64,000 bases of DNA from an uncultured Mycoplasmatota bacterium. GTDB taxonomy: Bacteria; Bacillota_I; Bacilli_A; RF39; UBA660. Of this stretch, positions 5,582-43,797 are shown piece by piece (the first letter of the stretch is position 1; each line of letters opens with the position of its first letter). The stretch covers positions 5,032 to 69,031 of the forward strand of contig UREA01000005.1 in the NCBI GenBank assembly GCA_900546715.1, written 5' to 3'. The notes below the pieces were generated by a model. That model was not told the origin of the DNA. It searched no databases and saw nothing but the letters and a program-made list of their open reading frames with translations. The position numbers and the translations under genes are program-made.

Positions 5582-7231
5582 ATGGAAATACAAACATTAT
5601 TACCAAAAATAACAAACAATTTTTTAGAAGATTATCTTAAATCTTGTGGAGTGGATGATGTAGAAACATATTTAAATGCCGATTTAAATTGTGTAGACAA
5701 TCCATTACAATATATAGATATGAATAAAGCAATAAAAAGATTGCAGAATGCTATTAAAAGAAAAGAAAAAATTGGTATTCTTATTGATTCTGATGCTGAC
5801 GGTATTTTATCATCTGCACTTTTATATTCTTTTTTAAAAGAGTATTTAGATGTAAAAGATATTGTTATTTATAATCATATTGGAAAACAACATGGATTAG
5901 TTCAAAATGAACAAGAGAATATTATTTCACAAATCGTTCAAAGTGATATCAGTCTTTTATTTTGTCCTGATTCTGCATCTAATGACGTTGAACAAGTTAA
6001 TTTACTTAAAGAATATGGTGTTGATGTTATTATATTAGATCACCATGAAATTGAAAAAATAAATTCTAATGCCATAGTAATTAATCATCATAGAAGTAAA
6101 AATTTGAATACTGCTTTGTCTGGATGTGGTGTAACATTTAAATTTGTACAAGCATATTCTCAAAAAATGGACATTGATATTAAAAATCAATATTATGATA
6201 TGGTAGCTATTAGTTTAGTTACTGATATGTGTAATATGACATCTTTGGAAAATCATGCTTTATTTAAATACGGAATTAATAATATAACAAATCCAATGAT
6301 AAAAGCAATGATTGAAGAATATTCTTTTAGAGATATAAGTCCATATAATATAGCTTGGTCTATCTCTCCTAAAATCAACTCTGTATTTAGAGCCGGAACA
6401 TTAGAAGACAAGAATAATTTTTTCTATTGTTTTGTAGAAGAAAGACCAATTTTTCAAGGATTAGATATTTGTGAATTTTGTCACAAAAATCAAAGAAAAA
6501 TTGTGAATACTTTGACAAAAGAATTAAACTCTAATTTAGAAAAATATGATAATGTAATTATTGGTTTTGCTTTTAATGAAGAAACTGTTTATAATGGATT
6601 AATTGCTAATAAAATTGCAGGTACAAATCATAAAACCACTTTAGTTATTAGAGAAATACAAGATAAATATATGGGTTCTTTAAGATCACCAATAGACATT
6701 GCTAATAAAATTAATGATACTGGTTTAGCTTTATGCCAAGGACATTTGCAAGCATGTGGAATTGAATTAGAAAAAAATAAATTGAATGATTTAGTTGAAT
6801 GGTTCAATCATCAAACTTTTTCTATAAAAAAGAATGTGTCTGCTATTATTGAAGCTAAACAAATCACTCAATCTTTATGCCAAATAATAGAGAATAATAA
6901 AGATTTGTGGAATAGTAGCGAAGCAGCTAAAATAACAAAGCCAAAGTTTTATATTACTTTTTCAAATGACAGTTATAATATTTACACCAATAGAACAACA
7001 ACAATTAAATTTAATGTAAATGGCACAAATATTATTAAATTTAGAGCTAAAAAAGAAGATGTAGAACTAATAGAAAAAGAAGATTGTAAAATCGAAGCTA
7101 TTATCACTTTATCTATTAATGAATGGAATGGTAATAAATATCCGCAAGCTATTATTGAAGAATGGGAAATCGTACCCACAACAAAAAATTCAACATTATA
7201 CGATAATAATAATTGGGCGTGTAATTGGTAA
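5582..7231 (+). CDS. RecJ-like DHH-family single-strand DNA exonuclease
   Basis: DHH-family motifs ILIDSDADGILSSA, CPDSASND and ILDHHE. Confidence 0.65.
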   Translation: MEIQTLLPKITNNFLEDYLKSCGVDDVETYLNADLNCVDNPLQYIDMNKAIKRLQNAIKRKEKIGILIDSDADGILSSALLYSFLKEYLDVKDIVIYNHIGKQHGLVQNEQENIISQIVQSDISLLFCPDSASNDVEQVNLLKEYGVDVIILDHHEIEKINSNAIVINHHRSKNLNTALSGCGVTFKFVQAYSQKMDIDIKNQYYDMVAISLVTDMCNMTSLENHALFKYGINNITNPMIKAMIEEYSFRDISPYNIAWSISPKINSVFRAGTLEDKNNFFYCFVEERPIFQGLDICEFCHKNQRKIVNTLTKELNSNLEKYDNVIIGFAFNEETVYNGLIANKIAGTNHKTTLVIREIQDKYMGSLRSPIDIANKINDTGLALCQGHLQACGIELEKNKLNDLVEWFNHQTFSIKKNVSAIIEAKQITQSLCQIIENNKDLWNSSEAAKITKPKFYITFSNDSYNIYTNRTTTIKFNVNGTNIIKFRAKKEDVELIEKEDCKIEAIITLSINEWNGNKYPQAIIEEWEIVPTTKNSTLYDNNNWACNW

Positions 7232-11225: not shown

Positions 11226-12640
11226 TCTCTCAACTACATTCATATAGCTATTCTATTGTAGCTCTTCAAGAACTTAATCTAAATTATTTTTATCCTAAGG
11301 TTTATTGGAATTGTGGTTGTCTTTCTGTTGAATCTATGGGACTTAAAGACAATGAAGATGGTACACAAAAAATTGGTAATACTAATTATGCAGAAATTTC
11401 AAAAGCCATATATAAGATGAAACAATCTGGTATAAATGTATTACCTCCTTCTATTAATAATTCTGATATAGATTATGTTCCCTCGGAAGAAAAAGATATA
11501 ATATATTTTGGCCTTATAGGAATTTCTGGAATTAATATCAACATTTGCCAACAAATTATTGAAAATAGACCTTATAATTCATTCAAAAACTTTTATGAAA
11601 AAAATTGTTATGATGGTAGTTTAATTACACATAGCAAATTTATTCAATTAATTAAAGCAGGTTGTTTTGATGAATTTAATTCAGACCGAACAATAATAAT
11701 GAAACAATATGTTATATTATCTACTCCTATTAAAGATACATTAACAATGTCTAATCTTCCAGAAATATTAAGAATTAAATGCAATATACCGAAAAATATT
11801 ATCGAGCCTTATTATTTCAAAAAATATGTAATTAATAAGCAATTTTTATATGGACAGCATCCTAATTTTAAGACAAAGAAATTATATTGGTTAGATAATA
11901 AAGCTCTAAAATACTTTGAAAAACATTGTAAATTAAAGATGAAAGAAAATATAGATTGGTTACAAAAAGATGATTTAACTTTAATAGTTGACAAATCTTT
12001 AGAGAAAGCAATTTCTTCTCAAATACAGTCTTTGAAAGATTATATTTCCAATCCTTCTTTTATACAAGAATATAAAAATAAAACATATATATATTATTAT
12101 TCAAATATGTTAGATAATAAAGACCCTAATCATTGGTCTATTGAATCATGTGGATTTTATTCTAATCAACACGAATTATTAAACATCAATAGACAAAAAT
12201 ATAATATTTCTTTATTTGATGATATTCCTTTGTCTCCCGTATTTTATACCGAAAAATACGGAAAAAAAGAATGGAAGAAATATGAATTATATCAAATTGC
12301 TGGAACAGTTATTGATAAAATTGACAATCATCATTTAGTTACTATTCTTGATATTAATAACAAAGTAATCCAATGCAAGTTTGATAAAAATGATTATGCT
12401 TATTATAAAGCTCAAATTAGTGACACAAATGGTGATAAAGGAAAAAATATAATAGAAATTTCTTGGTTTAGAAGAGGAACAACTTTAATTTTAACTGGAT
12501 ACCGTATAGGATTAAATGATTTTCGCATAAAAACTTACAAAAACTCAATTTATAACAAAAAAGTAAAAAAAATTTGTTCTATCAATGATAAAACCGGAGA
12601 AATTATTACTCAAAGTGATAAACAAATAATTGAAAAATAA
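11226..12640 (+). CDS. dnaE: DNA polymerase III alpha, exon 3: C-terminal part with OB-fold region
   Basis: The frame is open from 11226, upstream of the first ATG at 11336. FSQLHSYSYSIVALQELNLNYFYPKVYW continues the DnaE motif. Confidence 0.8.
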
Positions 12641-32693: not shown

Positions 32694-32730
32694 TTAAAAA
32701 TATAAGAGGGGAAGTTATCCCCTCTTATAT
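32694..32730 (-). terminator. hairpin overlapping the tape measure stop codon
   Basis: Stem ataagagggg/cccctcttat, followed on the - strand by atattttt. Confidence 0.45.
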
Positions 32731-35700
32731 GCTGTCTGATAAGCAAAATTAACTAAAGATTGAACAAATTCTTGAACGTCATTTTTATTCTTAATACTTG
32801 GGAAAGATAAATCTACATTACTCATATTAAGCTGGAATCCTTTGTCTTCTGTCGGTAAATTGCTTAAAAGATCAATAGGATTCATTTTGCCCCAATCCCA
32901 TAAATTCTTTGTGACATCAGAAGGGAGAATACTATCCCCAGTATTTAATAACCTAAGTTCAGGCCCTTCTTCTCCCACAAGAGACATACCGCCTTTAGAA
33001 GACAAAGTGCCCTTAGCATTCTTTTCAACTAATTTGCTCCAAAGACCATTAATTGGATTATATTTAGCACCAGGAGTATATGGATGTACAATCTCATAAT
33101 CTCCTCCGGCTGTATGAATAATATCACCAATAGTAGCACCTTCTGGAGCATTACCGCCTGGAGCTACATCTAAATGTTTCCCGCCACCAACATATTCACT
33201 TTGATAGCTACCATCTTCATTAACTCCTGTAATTCTATAATTACCACCAGCAGTTGAAACTATTGTGCCAACAGGTAATCCCTTAGTTTGTGTTTTACCA
33301 TCCTTAATATCAACATCTATAACACCGACACCAGGAACCCAAGCAGTACCCGGAGTCCCTCTTCCACCTTCGGCATTTGGACCAGATACTACTGTATTTT
33401 TATCTTGCCCTGTTTGCCAATTTTCGTTTTCGAGTTGTTGCATGAGTTGAATATATCGGTCAACATAATCCTGTAAATTACCAAGACGTTTTTCCCAATT
33501 ATCTCCCTCAAGTTTAATACCTAATATTTGTTCGGCTAATAAACGATCTTGAAGATCATTGACTTCGTCAATAGCACTACCATATTCATCAACATAATCC
33601 TGCCAATATTTAATTTTTTCTTCAAGAATTTTTAACTCTTCGTCTCTATTTTTCTCTAACTGCTCTATTTGCTCTTCGAGAGCCTTTTCAGCCTTATATC
33701 TATCCAGCTCTTTTTGCGCTTCAGAAATAGCGTCTGTATCTTGTATATATTGAAACCGTCCATCTTTATATACATACAATTTTTGAGTACGAGCTTTTGC
33801 TAAGGCATCCAACTTTTCTTGAAGCTCTATCTGCTCATTAGTTTCTTCATTTTGCTTCTCTAATTTTTCTATCTCAGCATCATATTTATCATTAATAGCA
33901 TCTTTTTGCTCTTCGAGTTTGTCTATTTCTCTTTGAGCTAATTCAGCTACATAATTTAAGGCTTTTTCAATATTATCAGCTTCAGTTTCCCACGCATCAC
34001 GTTCAGCCTCTATATAATTATCGAGCGCATCTTCTCGTTGTTCAAGATAATACTCATAATCAATTAAGCCTTGTTCATACCAATCGTCCATCCATTCCAT
34101 GACGCGACGCCAAGCATCAATTTCATTATCAGCGCCCCAATCATTGAAATAATTACGATCTTCTATATAATCTTCTGAGCGTTTTAATCGTTTATCAAAG
34201 GCATCCTGTTGGAGTTTAAGAATATCTTCTTCATACCCCCACCACTCTTTCTGAAGTTCCATTATATACTCAGACTCATCGTCAAGTCCTTGTTTTCTAT
34301 AACTTTCAGCTTCATCATGAGCTTTCTTTTGCATTTGACGTAAATGAGCTATCTGTTCTTGTTCAGTAGCACCATTCTTTTCCATTAAATACAATTTATG
34401 ATCTAATATATCCATCTGTTCTTTATACAGATCATTTTGTTCTTTAATGGCATCATTTTCATCCTTTATTGCTTTGGTAGAAGATTTAGCAGTAGATGTC
34501 TTTTTCTTGGAAGCAGAAGATGAAGAGGAAGAAGAAGGTTTTTTAGAAGATGGCGGTTTCGAGGTAGAAGGTTTTGACCCAGAAGGTTTTTTATCTCCCC
34601 ATAAATTTCCAACAGTGTCTGAAACATCTATTATAGATTGTCTTCCTGTACCTTGAGCATATCCACCTTTTACATCTTCTTTTTCTACTTTATGCCCAAC
34701 ATTCCTACTAATGTCTTTATTAGAAGTAACAACCGCTCCTTTGGGTAAAGTAACTATTTCAGGACCTTGTTCTCCTACCCAATATTGCCCGGCTCTATTT
34801 ACTTTACCTCCCTGAGCTTTGCCGCCGCCAAGATCAGGAATAATATAACCTAAAACTTTCTGAGCACCGGAACCAATTTGTGAAATAATTCCCTTCAAAC
34901 TATTCCAAATTGAACTGACTCTATTATAACAATTTTGAGCAGCAGAAATTAAACCGCTGAATGCGCCCTGAGATGCACTTGTATCTACTGGATTATTTGT
35001 AACCTCTTGTTGAGCATCTTTTACTCCTTCAACAGGTCCAGCAGCATCTTCAGCCGCAGACTTTTCTTCATTTAATTCGGTCTGACTTGCATCTGTATTA
35101 GCCGGATTTTCAGTCACTCTCTTTTGAGCAGTGGCAACTAATTCTAATGCTCTTGCATCGGCATCTGCTACTCCCTTACTCTCTAAGAAAGAAGCAATCA
35201 TGTCAACATTCGCATTAGCCAGTCCTTCAACGCCTAATTGAGCCTCTAACATCGTATAAGCTAAATTAGTGACTTGTTCTTGAAATTCCTCAAAAGTGGT
35301 AGAACCAGATACAAGCCCCTCAAGAATTTCATCCCAACCTTCCAATCCACTAAATGCTTCATTTAACTGCATAATAGACTCAAAACTTAACTGTCCATTT
35401 TCAGCAAATTCAGCTACAGATTGAGAAAGTATGTCAAAATATCCGCCTACATCTCCTAAACCACTTAATTGCCCTGATAAAGAATTTATGCTTTCTGCCG
35501 CCGCCTCAATAGTTGTTCCAAAATGATCCTGAAAGAAATCAAGAACACTAATGGTTTCTCCATTTAGTACCATTACAGCATTCTTTAATCGTTTTGGAAG
35601 CTCTCCTGTCTTTGCATATAACTGAGTCATTGTATCCCAATATTCAGTTAATACGCCCTCTTGCTCTAAAAGGTCATCATTAGCTTCAGCTATTTGCTTA

Positions 35701-36884
35701 AAATCGCCAGTACTTAAAGCCTCATCGACTGCTTTTTGATAATTATTCCACTGAGTAATTGCTTTTTCGATATATAGCTCAGTGTCCATCATTTCTCCAG
35801 TAATAGTAGCACGAGTTTTTTGTCCTGATGCTATTCTATCACCGATCGGAGAAGCAGTTAAAATAGCTTCTAATTTTTCAGTCTCAAGAGACGCTATATT
35901 GTTCTTCATCTGTTTTAATTGCTCATTATAAGCTGCTAAAACAGATGCACTTGCACCGCTACCCTCTAATTCTGCTATTTTCTGTTCAAGTTCGGAAACA
36001 GCTTCTGTTGTTTCATCAATCTCATCTTGAATAACATGCTCGGCAGTAGCTTCTTCCATAGATTTCTTTGCAGCAAATCCAATGGAAATAAGCGCACTAA
36101 CTAACATCGCAATAGGTCCAGCAAAAGTCCCTATTTTGCTTAATGCCCCAGATAGTTTACCAACAGAACCAGACGCTTTACCAGCGGCAGAAGCAATACC
36201 ACTTATAGCATCACCAGTAGCAGAAGCAGCGGAAGCAGCTTTGCCCACATCCCCCATAGTGGAAAACAATTTACCCATATTAACAAATTTAGCTCCCACT
36301 TTCCCGGCAATAGCTAAGAAACCTGTGAGAACTCCGCTTAATAAAGTAAATTGTGTTACTGCTACGCCAACATCTGTTGATAATAACTCTAACCCAGTGT
36401 TAGCTAAATCTAATATTCCTTTAACCAAATCACTATCTATAACAGAAGTAGATAGTTCTTGGAAAGTATTTTTAAGGTTGCCAACTTTTGCCTCTAAGCT
36501 ATCCATATAAGCGGCATTTTCTCTTGTGGCAGAACCTGCAGAATCCATTGCAGTTGCCGTTGCACTTATAGCAGATTCAAAGTTGGTCATAACAGAAGTT
36601 AATACGTTAAATTGGTTTTTACCAGCAAGAGCCTCACCAATAGCAGCTTGTTCTACACTGGCTAATTCATCCCAAGCAACCGATTGACCTTCTACACCTT
36701 CATAAAGTTCTTTTAAAACTTCATATGTTGATTTCATTTCTCCCTGAGAATCTCTCAGAGAAATATTAACTTTGCCATTAGCAGCTACATATTTATCTGT
36801 TTCAGCCGCTAATGCTGCTATGTTCAACCCTATTGTTCGTAGACCATTGCCCACCTTACTTGGCTGGCCTACAAGGATTTCAGT
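32715..36884 (-). CDS. tail tape measure protein, exon 5
   Basis: The frame is open upstream of the track start back to 36884. It begins TEILVGQPSKVGNGLRTIGLNI, the conserved TMP core motif. Long coiled coils, hydrophobic segments and two VGE.GPE motifs follow. Confidence 0.85.
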   Translation of the reverse strand, partial: TEILVGQPSKVGNGLRTIGLNIAALAAETDKYVAANGKVNISLRDSQGEMKSTYEVLKELYEGVEGQSVAWDELASVEQAAIGEALAGKNQFNVLTSVMTNFESAISATATAMDSAGSATRENAAYMDSLEAKVGNLKNTFQELSTSVIDSDLVKGILDLANTGLELLSTDVGVAVTQFTLLSGVLTGFLAIAGKVGAKFVNMGKLFSTMGDVGKAASAASATGDAISGIASAAGKASGSVGKLSGALSKIGTFAGPIAMLVSALISIGFAAKKSMEEATAEHVIQDEIDETTEAVSELEQKIAELEGSGASASVLAAYNEQLKQMKNNIASLETEKLEAILTASPIGDRIASGQKTRATITGEMMDTELYIEKAITQWNNYQKAVDEALSTGDFKQIAEANDDLLEQEGVLTEYWDTMTQLYAKTGELPKRLKNAVMVLNGETISVLDFFQDHFGTTIEAAAESINSLSGQLSGLGDVGGYFDILSQSVAEFAENGQLSFESIMQLNEAFSGLEGWDEILEGLVSGSTTFEEFQEQVTNLAYTMLEAQLGVEGLANANVDMIASFLESKGVADADARALELVATAQKRVTENPANTDASQTELNEEKSAAEDAAGPVEGVKDAQQEVTNNPVDTSASQGAFSGLISAAQNCYNRVSSIWNSLKGIISQIGSGAQKVLGYIIPDLGGGKAQGGKVNRAGQYWVGEQGPEIVTLPKGAVVTSNKDISRNVGHKVEKEDVKGGYAQGTGRQSIIDVSDTVGNLWGDKKPSGSKPSTSKPPSSKKPSSSSSSSASKKKTSTAKSSTKAIKDENDAIKEQNDLYKEQMDILDHKLYLMEKNGATEQEQIAHLRQMQKKAHDEAESYRKQGLDDESEYIMELQKEWWGYEEDILKLQQDAFDKRLKRSEDYIEDRNYFNDWGADNEIDAWRRVMEWMDDWYEQGLIDYEYYLEQREDALDNYIEAERDAWETEADNIEKALNYVAELAQREIDKLEEQKDAINDKYDAEIEKLEKQNEETNEQIELQEKLDALAKARTQKLYVYKDGRFQYIQDTDAISEAQKELDRYKAEKALEEQIEQLEKNRDEELKILEEKIKYWQDYVDEYGSAIDEVNDLQDRLLAEQILGIKLEGDNWEKRLGNLQDYVDRYIQLMQQLENENWQTGQDKNTVVSGPNAEGGRGTPGTAWVPGVGVIDVDIKDGKTQTKGLPVGTIVSTAGGNYRITGVNEDGSYQSEYVGGGKHLDVAPGGNAPEGATIGDIIHTAGGDYEIVHPYTPGAKYNPINGLWSKLVEKNAKGTLSSKGGMSLVGEEGPELRLLNTGDSILPSDVTKNLWDWGKMNPIDLLSNLPTEDKGFQLNMSNVDLSFPSIKNKNDVQEFVQSLVNFAYQTAYKRG

Positions 36885-37253
36885 CTTTTATGTTTAGAAT
36901 TTTTTGTTTAAATGAATTGTTCTAATTCCTTTTATATTTCTATAAAAAATAGACCATATCTTAATATATAATATTTTATATATTTAGGGCGCTTAGGCTT
37001 TCGCCTACACTACTCACTTCGTTTGTTAATACAACTTATTCTCTATTAAGAGTTACATTTATTATTTGCTTTCGTTGGCCGTTGAAGGTTATACTATATT
37101 TCAATAGTATCTTCCCTGCGGATTGTCTACATATTTTTATTCTTATTACTATACCTTTGGCATTACCCTAAGCCCTTATAATATCACTATTATAAGTTAG
37201 TAAATAAAACTTTAAGATATCCCCGCAATTCACCCTATACTGGCAAGAAATCC
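36885..37253 (-). mobile_element. group I intron, ORF-less (TMP intron 4)
   Basis: Follows exon U37254 and ends at G36885. Guide gccagt (37244-37239) pairs with exon gctggt, with G.U pairs. P7 3' strand is aagatatggtc (+ strand gaccatatctt, 36952-36962). Paralog of TMP intron 3. Confidence 0.8.
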
Positions 37254-37389
37254 ACCAGCCGTAACCAAACCTATCGTCTCTTCAAATGTATTCCCTGTTG
37301 TTCCTAATGCTGTACCAGCTTTTATAAGAGCAGTAGATAAATCATTAGTACCAACAGCAAAATTATTGGCTGTCTCATTGCTATATTAA
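37254..37389 (-). CDS. tail tape measure protein, exon 4
   Basis: Encodes (V)NETANNFAVGTNDLSTALIKAGTALGTTGNTFEETIGLVTAG, a canonical TP901-type TMP core. It has no start codon of its own. Confidence 0.8.
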
Positions 37390-37724
37390 AATAAATTTTT
37401 ATTATTTGTTTAATATTCGACTATATCTTTATATTTAACTAAATATATCAGGGCGCTTGGGCTTTCGCCTACTCTACTCACTTCGTCTATTAAAATAGCT
37501 TATTCTCTATTAAGAGTTACATTTATCATTTGCTTTCGATAGTCTGTGAAGATTCATCTTTGTTTCAAAAGATGCTTTCCTGCGGATTGTTTATTATTAT
37601 ATCCTTTTTCCTTATTACTATTCCTTTGACATTACTCTCAGCCCTTATAATATCACTATTATAAGTTAGTAGAAAAAGACATTAAAATATTCCCGCAATT
37701 CACCCTAAAACGGCCTTTATTAAA
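37390..37724 (-). mobile_element. group I intron, ORF-less (TMP intron 3)
   Basis: Follows exon U37725 and ends at G37390. Guide gccgt (37714-37710) pairs with exon gcggt. P7 3' strand is aagatatagtc (+ strand gactatatctt, 37428-37438). Confidence 0.8.
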
Positions 37725-37924
37725 ACCGCATCAATAATATGCTCGGAATTTTCAGCCTCTATATTAAAGGCTTTCATTTGAGAGATCAAAAATCGTGCTG
37801 CGTCAGCACTTGATACTTGAGTATCAGCTATATTTGTATATTTAACCGCTATTTCTGCTAATAAAGCAGAATCACTATCATCAAAAGAGTTTTTTCTGAA
37901 TTCAGTGGCAGCTTGTAACATTTC
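37725..37924 (-). CDS. tail tape measure protein, exon 3
   Basis: Encodes EMLQAATEFRKNSFDDSDSALLAEIAVKYTNIADTQVSSADAARFLISQMKAFNIEAENSEHIIDA(V). The exon may begin 3 nt earlier, at 37927. Confidence 0.75.
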
Positions 37925-37930
37925 CGACAG

Positions 37931-38188
37931 TTAATCATCTATTGGACCATATTCTTCCATTTGTTCATTTTGCTCTCGATTATCTTCTTCAATCATTGAT
38001 TCAATAACTCCTTCATCTGTTTTCTCCTTTGAAAAAATAGCACAAAAAATCCCTGTTATTCCTACCATAATAAATGGTAAACAAACTACAATTTTTGGCA
38101 ATTCAGAAGGTCCAGCATAAAGAATAGCTAAAAGAATAAACCAAGCAATTATTAAAACAAAAACAAACAAACACACCATGACTCCCAT
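37931..38188 (-). CDS. intron-encoded small membrane protein (two TM helices plus an acidic tail)
   Basis: RBS aaggaga and ATG at 38188. Sequence VCLFVFVLIIAWFILLAILYA and IVVCLPFIMVGITGIFCAIF, then EEDNREQNEQMEEYGPIDD. The stop lies 3-6 nt before the 3' splice site. Confidence 0.5.
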   Translation of the reverse strand: MGVMVCLFVFVLIIAWFILLAILYAGPSELPKIVVCLPFIMVGITGIFCAIFSKEKTDEGVIESMIEEDNREQNEQMEEYGPIDD

Positions 38189-38209
38189 CTCCTTTTTAAT
38201 TCTATTATA

Positions 38210-38239
38210 ATTTTATCACTCATAAAATTAAAAAGTCAA
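38210..38239 (-). promoter_or_regulatory. sigma70-like promoter inside TMP intron 2
   Basis: On the - strand: ttgact (38239-38234), 18 nt, then extended -10 TGaTAAAAT (38218-38210). Confidence 0.45.
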
Positions 38240-38559
38240 TAGACAATTTTAACAAAAATACTTTCATATTTTCCTGGACTATTTCTTCACCCTATAATAT
38301 TTGGAGGGGTCGAACTTTTAAAGTCTCTTGACACATCCCTCATCAGGACTTCGCAACCAATCAACCATTCAATGATTATATAATCATTCCAGACTTAGGT
38401 ATTTCTACCATATCTTATTCTATTTATTGTTAATAGTTTCCCGCATTCATATTATCATATCTCATATAATATTGTAGCTAAATAGACTTTAGGTGTTATT
38501 GGATTTTGAACGATTCTCAGTGCTAATTTACCATCTTAACACTCCGGCCAGAAATATTA

Positions 38560-38648
38560 ACCGGTACGCCCAAACTGTTTACCAGCTTGAGATAATTGTG
38601 AAGTATAACTCTGCAGTCCTTCTTCACTCAGGTCAGAAACTTTCTTGA
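38560..38648 (-). CDS. tail tape measure protein, exon 2 (89 nt micro-exon)
   Basis: Encodes (F)KKVSDLSEEGLQSYTSQLSQAGKQFGRTG, which matches the TMP consensus ..ALTEFRKVSDLSgE.. when joined to exon 1. It falls below the ORF-track length threshold. Confidence 0.75.
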
Positions 38649-39046
38649 CATTTATATTAGGAAGTAATTGATAAAATATCAATTATATGGACGCTACTCC
38701 ATTCCCCTGTTTATATAACAGCTTTAATTTTCATTAAAGATTAGACTATATCTTCTTCTATAAATAATAGAAGTGTGCCATTTCAAAATACCAAACACTT
38801 GTATTTTTACTCCTTTTCAGGATAGTCGTTGAACGTTCCTTTATTCAAGGCTTCGCTGCTGATTATCTATTAATATTTACTTAGGATTTAACCATATAAA
38901 CATATTTTGCTTTTTTTCTACTTTCGTAACATTCACACTTAGGCATGTTTCATCCTTATGTTGTAGTAGCAAAATCTTTAAGACGTCCCAGCAATTAGAC
39001 ACATATTTTTACACTCATCTCACAATAAGCGAGAGCAAAAAAGTTC
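38649..39046 (-). mobile_element. group I intron, ORF-less (TMP intron 1)
   Basis: Follows exon U39047 and ends at G38649. Guide gctct (39036-39032) pairs with exon agagt. P7 strands are caacgacta (+ strand tagtcgttg, 38823-38831) and aagatatagtc (+ strand 38744-38754). The 5' half is near-identical to the tail-tube intron. Confidence 0.85.
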
Positions 39047-39320
39047 ACTCTGTCAATGCGCTATCTAATTCAAAGACTTGATCCACCATAGACCTAATAG
39101 CACTTGCCGAAGCATCCATAATCATATTTGCTTCTTGGAAAGTTAAGCCTATGTCCTTAGCAATGTCATTCAAATTTTTAGCACTATTTGTCGCCTTATC
39201 TAATCCCGAAGAATCAGCACTTATTTTTATTTTAGAATCTATTCCTTTTAACTGACTCTTTATACTTGATAAATCAAGTTCTACATCAGTTATAATAGAA
39301 TAATTAGAGCCTCCTGCCAT
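39047..39320 (-). CDS. tail tape measure protein, exon 1
   Basis: ATG at 39320 with RBS aaggatggg. Ends ..MVDQVFELDSALTE plus one nt. Confidence 0.8.
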
Positions 39321-39337
39321 AACTCACCCATCCTTCA

Positions 39338-39841
39338 TTATTTATTATTAATTTTGCTCCATGCAATAAGTATGGCTTCAGCCTGATCATCTTGAGTTTT
39401 CTTGCTTTTAGGCCCATGCCATTCTAATTTTAAATTAAATAATTTATTTGCCATAAGAATAGCTTTTTCCTTTAGCACTTCTCTTTTACGACCATCTTTT
39501 GTTCCATCGAACATATTCAACCTACTTCTCCAAACAGTAGGAGAAATATATTCAATTTCTATATCAAAATTAACACAAATATCAAAAATAAAACCATGAA
39601 CAGCCCCCAATAATAAAAGATTTTTACTACTTCTGCTTTCTAAAGGGACATCTTCCATATAAGCCATTATAGGTTCATATTTTTTAATTATTTCTTCTAT
39701 TTGATCTTTTTGTTCTTTCAATCTTTGATGCCATTCATCACTCTTAGCTCTGATTTCTGTACTGTAAACTAAATTTTTATTATTAAAAATAGAAATACCA
39801 GTACAAGTAGTGGACGCATCAATCCCCATAACTACACTCAT
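39338..39841 (-). CDS. RuvC-like Holliday junction resolvase
   Basis: Catalytic acidic residues in MGIDASTT, AYMEDVP and DDQAEAILIAW. 167 aa. Confidence 0.7.
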   Translation of the reverse strand: MSVVMGIDASTTCTGISIFNNKNLVYSTEIRAKSDEWHQRLKEQKDQIEEIIKKYEPIMAYMEDVPLESRSSKNLLLLGAVHGFIFDICVNFDIEIEYISPTVWRSRLNMFDGTKDGRKREVLKEKAILMANKLFNLKLEWHGPKSKKTQDDQAEAILIAWSKINNK

Positions 39842-41796: not shown

Positions 41797-41888
41797 TTAA
41801 TAGGGGTCCTCTTCACAACTGGTCTCATCATTAATAGCTAAAGCAGAACCAGTTAAAGAAACGGTAGCAGCACCAGTAGAAGTTAGTG
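41797..41888 (-). CDS. major tail (tube) protein, exon 2
   Basis: Encodes (S)LTSTGAATVSLTGSALAINDETSCEEDPY*. An alternative 3' splice site after G41903 would add NQNLA. Confidence 0.6.
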
Positions 41889-43145
41889 CAAGATTTTGAT
41901 TACTTTATGTTCACATAAGTTCGTTAATCTTATGCCGTTTTTAACAGCTTACACTTTCGTGCAAGAACAGACTATATGTTCAACTTAATTGTTCGTTATT
42001 CGTCATGTCAATATACCCAATAGAATGACCGGCCAACAAATAATCAATTTCTTGTTGTAATCTTTCTATTGTAGGTATACTATCTTTTTTATCACCTAAA
42101 ATACGCAAAACTTTATACCCTTGATTAATCAACCAATGATTTCTACGTCTATCATAATCTTTCATATCTTTATGCCAAAATACCCCGTCATACTCGACAT
42201 CAATCTTAACATTATTAAGAATTAATAGACAATCTAAATTTATTTTATCAACAGGATAACCAGGTTTGCAATTTTCTTTACCATATAATTGAATTAACAT
42301 ATTGATAATTTTTTGTTCTGGCTTAGATGTTGGCACTGTTCCATTTTTATACATAGATTTTTTGGCCTTAGCTTGCAATATATCACTTTTAACAGGATTA
42401 TCAACACCATAATTTTTAATCATACTATTTTTAAATTTTTCTTGTCCTATTTTTGTTTGCATAGCATAAGGTTTGCCGTATTTAGAAATCATTGACTCTT
42501 TAGCTTTAGCCCGTAATTTTTTATTTCCCCATAAAGAAGTTGAATTATATTTTCTTAATAAAGTATCTCGTATTTTTAGTTGTTTACATTGTTTACATGC
42601 CTGTTTACCGCGATCTTTTCCAATATTATAATTTGCATATCTTGTTTGATATTGTCTTCCGCAATAATCACATATACAAATCACATTCATTCGACTTCTT
42701 AAAGGCATATCTTTTGCAGGAACAAAAAACTCATCACCAATATATGTATAATGATATCCTTTGCTAATATAATGTTTTTTATTATTTGAAGACCATTTTA
42801 CTGATATTATTTGATTATCATTAAACATTTCATTCCTCCTTTCTATAAAAATATAACGAACAATCAAGTGCCGGATTTTTCAACTCACTTGAGTTTACTT
42901 CCCCACAAGGGAATAGTCGTTGAACCTTTCTCTATTCGAGAAGTGGCTGCTAAATACCCATTGCATAAACACTTAGGATTTAACCTTATGTCATTCTTTG
43001 CTTTTTTTCTACTTTCGTAACATTCACACTTAGGCATATTTCATCCTTATGTTGTAGTAGCAAAGACTTTAGGGATTCAAAGCAATTAACCCGGAGCATA
43101 TACTAATCACTTAATATATGTGGCATTATTTTTAAGCAATCTTGG
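41889..43145 (-). mobile_element. group I intron with a homing-endonuclease-like ORF (tail tube intron)
   Basis: Follows exon U43146. An 8-bp P1 forms between guide gcttaaaa (43137-43130) and exon ttttaagt. P7 strands are caacgacta (+ strand 42914-42922) and acatatagtc (+ strand 41970-41980). A 40-nt block (42998-43037) is identical to TMP intron 1 (38907-38946). Confidence 0.8.
41980..42828 (-). CDS. intron-encoded putative homing endonuclease (zinc ribbon, K..k.SM..kYG repeats, C-terminal Vsr/DUF559-like PD-(D/E)XK domain)
   Basis: ATG at 42828 after RBS aaggagg. CICDYCG...CKQCK zinc ribbon. Three repeats: KAKESMISKYGKP, KFKNSMIKNYGVDNP and KAKKSMYKNG. The C-terminus IDVEYDGVFWH...GYKVLRI resembles a DUF559/Vsr-type nuclease. 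The stop abuts the P7 3' strand. Confidence 0.55.
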   Translation of the reverse strand: MFNDNQIISVKWSSNNKKHYISKGYHYTYIGDEFFVPAKDMPLRSRMNVICICDYCGRQYQTRYANYNIGKDRGKQACKQCKQLKIRDTLLRKYNSTSLWGNKKLRAKAKESMISKYGKPYAMQTKIGQEKFKNSMIKNYGVDNPVKSDILQAKAKKSMYKNGTVPTSKPEQKIINMLIQLYGKENCKPGYPVDKINLDCLLILNNVKIDVEYDGVFWHKDMKDYDRRRNHWLINQGYKVLRILGDKKDSIPTIERLQQEIDYLLAGHSIGYIDMTNNEQLS

Positions 43146-43797
43146 ACTTAAAAATTTCACCATCCATTTGTAATCTTGGTACATCAGTAATTAACCGACC
43201 ACAACGGGTCTGATCAGTTTGTACATTAATATCACCAGAATATAAATCATTTAAAATAACCACATGAAGTTCAGAAGGAACATATTGAGTTTTAATTCTA
43301 ATAGATTTAGCGTTCTCATTCTGATAAAAATACTTGACACAATAATGATCGTTGCTCTGAGAACTAGGAATCGTCATAGTATTGCCACTAATAGCACCGA
43401 TCGTCCAATTAGAATCAGCAGGTTTCTTATACCAACCAATTAAAGTACCATCGAACATCACAGGAGTCTCAGTGAGTTCAACATTGCCTCCACCACCACT
43501 GACTGTCACTTCTTCTTCTATAACAGATAAGCCTCCAGATTCAATATTAACGCCAAGAGAAGCCGCAATATACTCGAAGTTGAACATTGTGTCGGTCAAA
43601 GTGATAGCTAAGTTACTGTCATGGAAGAATTTACCCCACAAAGCATTACCTTGACCGCCACGAACTTCTTCGGCGGTAATAGTGAAATCGAAGGTAGTAT
43701 CAGTTAAAGTTTTAGCTACGCCAATTAACTCATTATTCTTAAAAATTAATGCACGACCTACGCCAGCAGCATAATGATTTTGAGCCATTAATTTCAC
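43146..43797 (-). CDS. major tail (tube) protein, exon 1
   Basis: Position and size fit a tube protein, and the exon ends in ..LITDVPRLQMDGEIFK. The stop codon of the unspliced frame lies inside the intron guide sequence. Confidence 0.65.

Follow-up and report, generated by a model that had tools for sequence, protein, structure and literature searches.

Related group I introns at two positions of a tape-measure protein (TMP) gene have been described in prophages of the Bacillus cereus group. These introns, TMP-IVS1 and TMP-IVS2, belong to subgroup IA2 and are ~80% identical, with the core conserved beyond P1, P2, P8 and P9; their guides are adapted to different TMP sites, and most copies are without an endonuclease gene (Tourasse and Kolsto 2008, NAR 36:4529; PMC2504315). 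Here, we analyze a comparable pair, introns I3 and I4 of the TMP gene in a 64,000-nt stretch of contig UREA01000005.1 (the window). Like TMP-IVS1 and TMP-IVS2, I3 and I4 are homologous introns at two TMP positions, are ~80% identical, and have site-adapted guides. Whereas I3 and I4 share a single gene, with 127 nt between them, the paper describes IVS1 and IVS2 from different prophages and not as neighbors within a gene (PMC2504315). The locus goes beyond that system in the endonuclease-bearing forms of I3 and I4 found in sibling phages and in the exchange of segments between copies.

The introns of orf142, the tail tube gene of Staphylococcus phage Twort, for which Landthaler and Shub (1999, PNAS 96:7005) is reportedly the source study, offer a second comparison. 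According to the passages on orf142 in PMC10136302 and PMC11878797, introns 2 and 3 are highly similar, ORF-less IA2 introns with a 23-nt exon between them, and exon skipping has been shown experimentally. The TMP gene resembles orf142 in that two similar introns without an open reading frame (ORF) flank a short exon and several introns interrupt one phage tail gene. In contrast to the 23-nt exon of Twort, the exon in the window is 127 nt long and skipping it would shift the frame. At the DNA level, the window introns also match Staphylococcus phages weakly (74.7% over 154 nt).

In nuclear ribosomal DNA (rDNA), related group I introns at neighboring sites serve as circumstantial evidence for spread by reverse splicing (Bhattacharya et al. 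2005, as reported in a passage of PMC3984707). According to a 2014 review, there is no direct evidence for this route, and the alternative is relaxed endonuclease specificity combined with illegitimate recombination (PMC3984707). The present locus resembles the rDNA cases in that related introns with different guides occupy different positions of one gene. Unlike the rDNA introns, which are mostly without endonuclease genes, I3 and I4 have an endonuclease-bearing form at each site, so the argument for reverse splicing does not transfer. Goddard and Burt are said to have modeled a homing cycle in which intron and endonuclease are gained, degenerate, and are lost. We consider it likely (probability roughly 0.8) that I3 and I4 belong to a mobile-intron family of intron-plus-endonuclease units that spreads by homing, and that the window copies represent its endonuclease-less stage.

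Splice sites, structure and kinship of I3 and I4

The TMP gene (32715–39320, minus strand, as are all features of the gene given below) consists of five exons and four group I introns. The splice sites are placed by the reading frame, the U.G rule, and comparison with relatives. Removal of all four introns yields a 4863-nt coding sequence (CDS) of 1620 codons for amino acids (aa), in frame, with a single terminal stop and no internal stops. The N-terminal 376 aa of the spliced product are 42% identical to the intron-less TMP of Enterocloster phage PMBT24, and the alignment is gapless at all four junctions (TE^FKK, RTG^SEM, DAV^NET, and TAG^TEI; here and below, the caret marks the intron or splice site). 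I3 (37381–37724, 344 nt) is inserted after the second base of codon V189 (..GAT GCG GT^), and I4 (36885–37253, 369 nt) follows codon G231 (..ACG GCT GGT^). Both introns terminate in G (I3, ..AATATAG^CAATGAG; I4, ..ATAAAAG^), and the I3 site is unoccupied in the sibling contig L054, which reads GATGCGGTTAATGAGACAGCC. The initial annotation had given the same outer coordinates of the pair (36885–37724) and the same length of I4, but an I3 of 335 nt, which ends 9 nt early and leaves an in-frame TAA. The gapless protein alignment, the empty I3 site in L054, and the stop-free 4863-nt CDS together support the corrected boundaries. With this correction, the exon between the introns measures 127 nt (37254–37380) rather than 136 nt. 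It encodes (V)NETANNFAVGTNDLSTALIKAGTALGTTGNTFEETIGLVTAG, the most conserved motif of the TMP, matches the PMBT24 TMP gene at 70.9% in DNA, and starts in phase 2 without a start codon of its own. By sequence comparison, the identity of I3 and I4 as group I introns and their boundaries are established.

Each intron carries a guide matched to its own 5′ exon. The internal guide sequence of I3, GCCGU (37710–37714), pairs with the exon sequence GCGGU (37725–37729), and that of I4, GCCAGU (37239–37244), pairs with GCUGGU (37254–37259), each with a U.G pair at the splice site. In accordance with the initial annotation, the guides differ where the exons differ. In addition, the first seven nucleotides of I4 (GGAUUUC, 37247–37253) are fully complementary to positions +4 to +10 of exon 5 (GAAAUCC, 36875–36881), a P10-like pairing that may fix the 3′ splice site.

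The structure that we write for the family comprises P3, P4, the P5 extension, P6, the P7 pseudoknot, and P7.1/7.2. Counted on eight family members, it is paired in 96% of cells, with compensatory change at 30 of 66 pairs, versus 36–50% and 3–7 pairs in controls whose partners are slid by 1–3 columns. P7 is 100% paired, with two compensatory pairs, in the same eight members, and RNAalifold finds compensatory changes in 25 of 53 pairs. Three hairpins lie between GACUA of P7 and CGCCCU of P3′ and are 87–92% paired, with compensatory changes; extra helices between P7 and the 3′ strand of P3 are also a feature of phage Twort and T4 introns. A J8/7-P7 segment of the AAGAUAUAGUC type is present in both I3 and I4. 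The pairwise covariation analysis proposed in the initial annotation finds 11 compensatory pair changes between I3 and I4 as scored (four in P6a and one in P7), and at least 12 after a register correction in P7.2. P6a reads CAUCUUU/AAAGAUG in one copy and AUACUAU/AUAGUAU in the other, P7 reads GACUA/UAGUC versus GGCCA/UGGUC, and the stems of the P7.2 hairpin (CUAU/AUAG and UUGU/ACAA) differ by two compensatory changes. Selection on both copies as ribozymes is supported at the sequence level, and the ORF-less forms presumably still splice. I3 and I4 probably belong to subgroup IA; the label IA2-like is given by analogy, without formal classification.

The similar segments might instead be repeats of an intergenic or regulatory nature that separate TMP fragments translated on their own, and gene callers do split such TMP genes into several ORFs, for example in phage CB457P1. 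This explanation is scarcely credible, since the exon phases make sense only after splicing (the 127-nt exon, in phase 2, has no start codon), alignment of the spliced product to intron-less TMPs needs no gaps, siblings have empty sites, and the group I core covaries.

As the initial annotation had recognized, I3 and I4 are collinear and highly similar. Identity is 79% for the full introns, which align over 337 columns, and 82% for the cores; a BLAST comparison gives 80.6% identity over 315 nt (E = 1e-73), and a repeat search at 36885–37724 returns repeat families of 144, 73, and 42 nt, their copies 464–470 nt apart. A 32-nt block, part of the hairpin of the P5 extension, is identical in I3 (37640–37671) and I4 (37171–37202), as had been noted, and AATTGCGGG has exactly two occurrences in the 64 kb, one per intron. 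The motif near the 5′ splice site, GGGTGAATTGCGGG, is indeed common to both introns, but it begins 18–19 nt into them and not 21–22 nt as first read.

I3, I4, and a further intron found in siblings, I4′, which is inserted after codon 226 and thus 14 nt upstream of the I4 site, form one clade in a neighbor-joining tree of the cores. The clade excludes introns that occupy the same positions elsewhere, namely those of L033 (189), L031 (190), L040 (231), and L041 (233). A family profile scores 283 bits on I3 and 267 bits on I4 with nhmmer. With a core profile, every copy of I3, I4, and I4′ reaches 239 bits or more, and no other family member found exceeds 135 bits. The score gap, together with the single clade that excludes same-site introns of other phages, supports, as far as the aligned cores tell, that I3 and I4 are paralogous introns of one family.

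Endonuclease genes and site occupancy in sibling phages

Sibling phages are found in IMG/VR and human-gut metagenomes by an exact-match scan with the 32-nt block and by scans with a three-block family pattern. They are ~97-kb contigs that are 96–99% identical outside the intron region. A near-identity search of window positions 30–50 kb against a phage collection gives no match, and a scan of genome contigs with the family pattern gives no match either.

All three sites, after codons 189, 226, and 231, show presence/absence polymorphism among these close relatives. The window, L003, L004, L005, L048, L051, and L056 carry ORF-less I3 at 189 and ORF-less I4 at 231, with site 226 empty, and L058 carries at least the same I4 as the window. 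Contigs L002, L006, and L008, and the contig sampled as both L052 and L055, carry I3 with a 286-aa ORF at 189 and ORF-less I4′ at 226, with site 231 empty. L054 is empty at 189 and 226 and has at 231 an I4 of 1036 nt with a broken endonuclease homologue; the I4 site is thus filled in L048, L051, L054, L056, and L058 alike. L050 (OGPA01000092.1) is empty at 189 and 231 and carries at 226 an I4′ with an intact 322-aa homologue. In L017, whose TMP is 79% identical, sites 226 and 231 are both empty. The guide of I4′, GCCCUAU, pairs with the exon sequence AUAGGGU, and a 6-bp P10 follows. Exon and guide of I4′ covary in place, with AUAGGGU/GCCCUAU in L002 and AUAGGAU/GUCCUAU in L008.

Two of these alleles hold a single intron (I4 without I3 in L054, and I4′ without I3 in L050), indicating that homing or recombination of such alleles can bring the pair together. 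Synonymous exon differences among the siblings are linked to intron type and resemble the result of co-conversion or allele replacement. A survey of related phages for each copy had been proposed as a check on spread by reverse splicing; it recovers all states of the sites, but the endonuclease-bearing forms and single-intron alleles among them speak against that route. As in the Goddard–Burt cycle, intact (L050 and L002), degenerate (L054), deleted (window), and empty (L054 and L017) states co-exist in one phage population. The pattern is the expected one, and nothing essential differs from the cycle.

An ORF scan finds no ORF in the window copies of I3 or I4. The initial annotation's statement that neither intron encodes an endonuclease is therefore true of this genome but not of the lineage, in which endonuclease genes occur in I3 (L002, L006, and L008), I4 (L054), and I4′ (L050). 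In I3, the 286-aa homing-endonuclease ORF is inserted after P7; the L002 protein matches PHROG 559 (E = 3e-36) and PHROG 9084, named 'homing endonuclease' (E = 7.5e-20). The endonucleases of I3, I4, and I4′ are mutually 30–40% identical in amino acids (E = 4e-20 to 8e-35) and have in common the motif FDFY..N..IE.(D/N)GE.H and a homologous C-terminus. Motifs and weak matches suggest that they are PD-(D/E)XK-like. Given that the window copies are ORF-less and their siblings carry endonuclease genes, the window copies can be regarded as passive derivatives.

The 3′ end of window I4 retains a remnant of such a gene. Its last 34 nt (36885–36918, AATTCATTTAAACAAAAAATTCTAAACATAAAAG) read NSFKQKILNIK in 11 codons. 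In 31 of these 34 positions they agree with the L054 endonuclease ORF at its end, and the peptide can be aligned to the C-terminal ends of the endonucleases from I3 and I4′. The match to the L054 ORF indicates that the ORF-less state of I4 is secondary. Window I4 is, to judge from this alignment, a deletion derivative, ~667 nt shorter, of an endonuclease-bearing intron. A candidate ORF remnant in the tail of window I3 was dropped, the sequence being too AT-rich and short to call.

Mosaic introns and the origin of the pair

The copies are mosaics, and their mixed segments show that exchange between copies is ongoing. Segment identities between intron types range from 0.42 to 1.00; I4 and I4′, for example, are 0.92 identical in P4′-P6-P7 but only 0.46 in P3′-P8-P7′. 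Within genomes, P7.1-7.2 is homogenized (0.96–1.00), and the two copies of each genome carry the same P7.1 hairpin, which is TCTTAATAGA in the window, TATATAAATATA in L002, and TCTGAATAGA in L008. In L050, the intron at the I4′ site (196–479) has the guide and the 5′ part of I4′, with a P4′-P6-P7 segment 100% identical to I3; its P4′-P6-P7 and P7.1-7.2 segments are 99–100% identical to I3 of L002. On these identities, the ribozyme core in L050 is one that has been swapped between sites.

A more distant relative, L020 (77% TMP identity), carries a small intron at each of the sites 189 and 231. In P1, P7, and P9, these are recognizable as counterparts of I3 (0.74) and I4 (0.77), but their likeness to each other is only 0.60. 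Together with the mosaic segments, this low likeness means that no duplication can be dated from the present similarity of I3 and I4. That a duplication took place within this gene, as the initial annotation had suggested, cannot be shown in the face of the mosaics and the site-specific counterparts in L020. Rather, the present similarity is in part a result of recombination between neighbors, and the two site lineages predate this genome. All data fit a reading in which I3 and I4 are paralogues from a single mobile family that homing and recombination have united and kept similar.

One could suppose that I3 and I4 were acquired independently from different donors, their likeness arising from family conservation and later gene conversion. 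The single-intron alleles L054 and L050, the greater divergence between the site counterparts of L020 (0.60), the homogenization of P7.1-7.2 within genomes, and the synonymous exon differences tied to intron type are all in line with such a history. On the other hand, in every segment, converted or not, I3, I4, and I4′ resemble one another more closely than they do any other sampled member of the family, and the three endonucleases are homologous. Moreover, the counterparts in L020 are mini-introns that have undergone reduction, and their divergence could have arisen secondarily. We therefore regard independent acquisition as improbable.

The initial annotation favored a route at the RNA level, with reverse splicing into a similar short target and compensatory guide changes. 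In full, this model would have ORF-less intron RNA reverse-spliced into a second target in the same TMP transcript, then reverse-transcribed and recombined into the genome, with later compensation of the guide. The copies are ORF-less in this genome, and I3, I4, and I4′ group by phage lineage and not by site, as this route would have it. The endonuclease-bearing forms of both introns at the same sites, the ORF remnant in I4, the single-intron alleles, and the site-specific counterparts in L020, only 60% alike, argue against it. The argument from the targets is equivocal. A 5′-GCC core is common to all guides, GGT precedes three of the four window introns as compared with 5–6% of T positions in the CDS, and the I3 guide GCCGU could make four contiguous pairs, two of them G.U, with the I4 target UGGU. 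The sites thus resemble each other as first claimed, GGT being enriched, but the likeness is limited to GGT; the target YGGU is unspecific, with 74 GGT in the CDS, and the enrichment is explained just as well by the need for a stable, G/C-containing P1 in AT-rich DNA of 37% G+C. Covariation of guide and exon does occur in place, as between L002 and L008. However, complementarity between guide and exon is required for splicing by any route of arrival and is not diagnostic of reverse splicing. Overall, reverse splicing is an unlikely origin of the pair. A 6-nt complement of the I3 guide region in the 127-nt exon (ACGGCU) was also considered as a footprint of reverse splicing and rejected, as it uses a shifted register and would put the intron 3 nt away from the real site.

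Homing of intron-plus-endonuclease units remains our preferred reading. Each intron would be removed from the mRNA by its own ribozyme, addressed by its own guide through P1 and, in I4, also through P10. I3, I4, and I4′ form a clade of intron-plus-endonuclease units that, in a ~97-kb human-gut phage population, fills three neighboring TMP sites, after codons 189, 226, and 231, in the most conserved stretch of the TMP. The units would move between phage genomes by DNA-level homing, driven by the putative PD-(D/E)XK-like endonuclease inserted after P7/P9. I3 and I4 of the window would then represent the endonuclease-less stage of the homing cycle. In I4, a deletion of ~667 nt would have spared the last ORF codons, which are kept because they double as the 3′ end of the intron. 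Copies in one genome or in co-infecting genomes would swap segments by homologous recombination, giving near-identical parts and mosaic cores.

Several observations weigh against this reading. Both introns score below the RF00028 gathering score of 50, with 40.6 bits for I4 (E = 1e-7) and 22 bits for I3 (E = 0.04); the Rfam alignments carry insertions of ~100 nt, corresponding to the P5 extension and P7.1/7.2, which the model penalizes. Searches of Pfam, NCBIfam, and PDB with the endonucleases of I3, I4, and I4′ give no significant match, and only PHROGs names an endonuclease. Window I3 shows no clear ORF remnant. Finally, homing explains spread to cognate sites but not how a paralogue first arises at a new one.

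A chimeric intron that consists of the 5′ part of I3 and the 3′ part of I4′ occurs in three independent assemblies (L007, 11682–12003; L047, ~6654–6936; and L053, ~11714–11988), in which the 127-nt exon is gone. Two different crossover points are seen, both in stretches of 30–64 nt that are identical between the twin introns, and the exons join out of frame (GCG GT^TG GTA..), running into TGA. These contigs may be defective genomes that arose by recombinational deletion or products of repeat collapse during assembly, collapse being at least as likely. The 64-nt identical stretches of twin introns may also make assemblies lose the exon between them.

Intron density in gut-phage TMP genes and neighboring features

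In related gut phages, the TMP gene is interrupted at recurrent positions, which are equivalent to residues ~91, 121, 148–150, 189, 192, 226, 231, 305, 319, and 363–372 of the window TMP. In L020 (2521–3527, IMGVR_UViG_3300045988_128355), four small group I introns of 253, 217, 205, and 205 nt fall within the stretch that matches the 127-nt exon of the window and its borders, leaving exons of 10 nt (CAATGAGGTT), 103 nt, and 14 nt (TAGTTACTGCCGGT); splicing them out gives an in-frame product. Two sites 14 nt apart, which are alternatives in the siblings of the window, are both filled there. 'Intron sliding' from 226 to 231 was rejected as an explanation for the two sites, given that both are filled in L020 with a 14-nt exon between them. 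Another contig, L036 (IMGVR_UViG_3300045988_142959), carries twins of a related intron (7–252 and 1422–1667) whose cores are 97% identical, with fully compensated differences in P8; the first copy lies at the contig end, where its 5′ exon is truncated. By core identity, this pair is much younger than that of the window.

Two further introns interrupt the TMP gene of the window. Above threshold, Rfam reports a single group I intron in the TMP gene (38722–39036, 65.4 bits), and at relaxed thresholds it reports 36930–37336 (40.6 bits), 38255–38384 (27.9 bits), and 37407–37748 (22 bits). The intron above threshold corresponds to TMP intron 1 (I1, 38649–39046, 398 nt; RF00028, 65.4 bits), which belongs to a different subfamily from I3 and I4 and is missing from the siblings L007, L047, and L054. 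Around the I1 site, L007 (10739–10790) has many synonymous differences from the window (GCATTGACAGAGT^TCAAGAAAGTTTCTGACCTG versus GCATTAACCGAATTTAAAAAGGTCAGCGATTTG), the signature that would be expected of co-conversion or allele replacement. TMP intron 2 (I2, 37928–38559, 632 nt; RF00028, 27.9 bits) follows ..ACCGGT^, in agreement with the ..ccGGT context first reported. It contains an 85-aa ORF (37931–38188), not an endonuclease, with a good ribosome-binding site (AAAGGAGATGGGAGTCATG). The protein has a hydrophobic N-terminal half resembling a membrane segment and an acidic tail, has no Pfam or PHROG match, and is conserved in L002, L007, and L054 with few amino acid changes and an intact frame. 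A predicted small membrane protein borne by an intron is unusual.

A fifth group I intron (~41800–43135, minus strand) lies in a gene upstream of the TMP region (ORF 43132–43797, a putative tail gene). Its ORF (41980–42867) encodes a 295-aa endonuclease with DUF7487 and DUF559 and a weak match to I-Bth0305I (3r3p, E = 0.018); BLASTP of the I3/I4 family endonuclease against this protein gives no significant match. The 5′ part of its ribozyme (42913–43088) is ~81% identical to that of I1 (38822–38997), making a second paralogous pair in the window. Directly upstream of the TMP gene lies a RuvC-like resolvase gene (39338–39841, minus strand; Pfam RuvC, E = 2.7e-6), and the same arrangement is annotated in Enterocloster phage PMBT24.

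The public record of Enterocloster phage CB457P1 (L001, OP172753.1, ~25.3–31.0 kb) has an annotation gap. Its TMP is annotated as several 'hypothetical proteins', and an intron of the same family with a fragmented endonuclease ORF lies at the equivalent of residue ~319. Intron-dense TMP genes are mis-annotated as strings of hypothetical ORFs. In addition, twin introns without ORFs should not be taken as evidence of spread at the RNA level unless relatives are checked.

How group I introns colonize new sites is still unexplained, and this locus does not settle the question. What appears to be new beyond earlier reports is the population series of states, the exchange of cores between sites, and the density of sites. 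We tentatively suggest, as a possibility that we hold to be somewhat less probable than its opposite, that the conserved N-terminal core of the TMP gene in this clade of human-gut phages amounts to a natural experiment in intron retargeting. One radiating family of introns and endonucleases would occupy at least ten recurrent sites, and the address module (the P1/P10 guide and the endonuclease) and the ribozyme core would be exchanged separately between sites, as in L050 with its I3 core at the I4′ site. If this is true, the stages by which an intron and its endonuclease acquire a new site could be traced through the series of intermediates.

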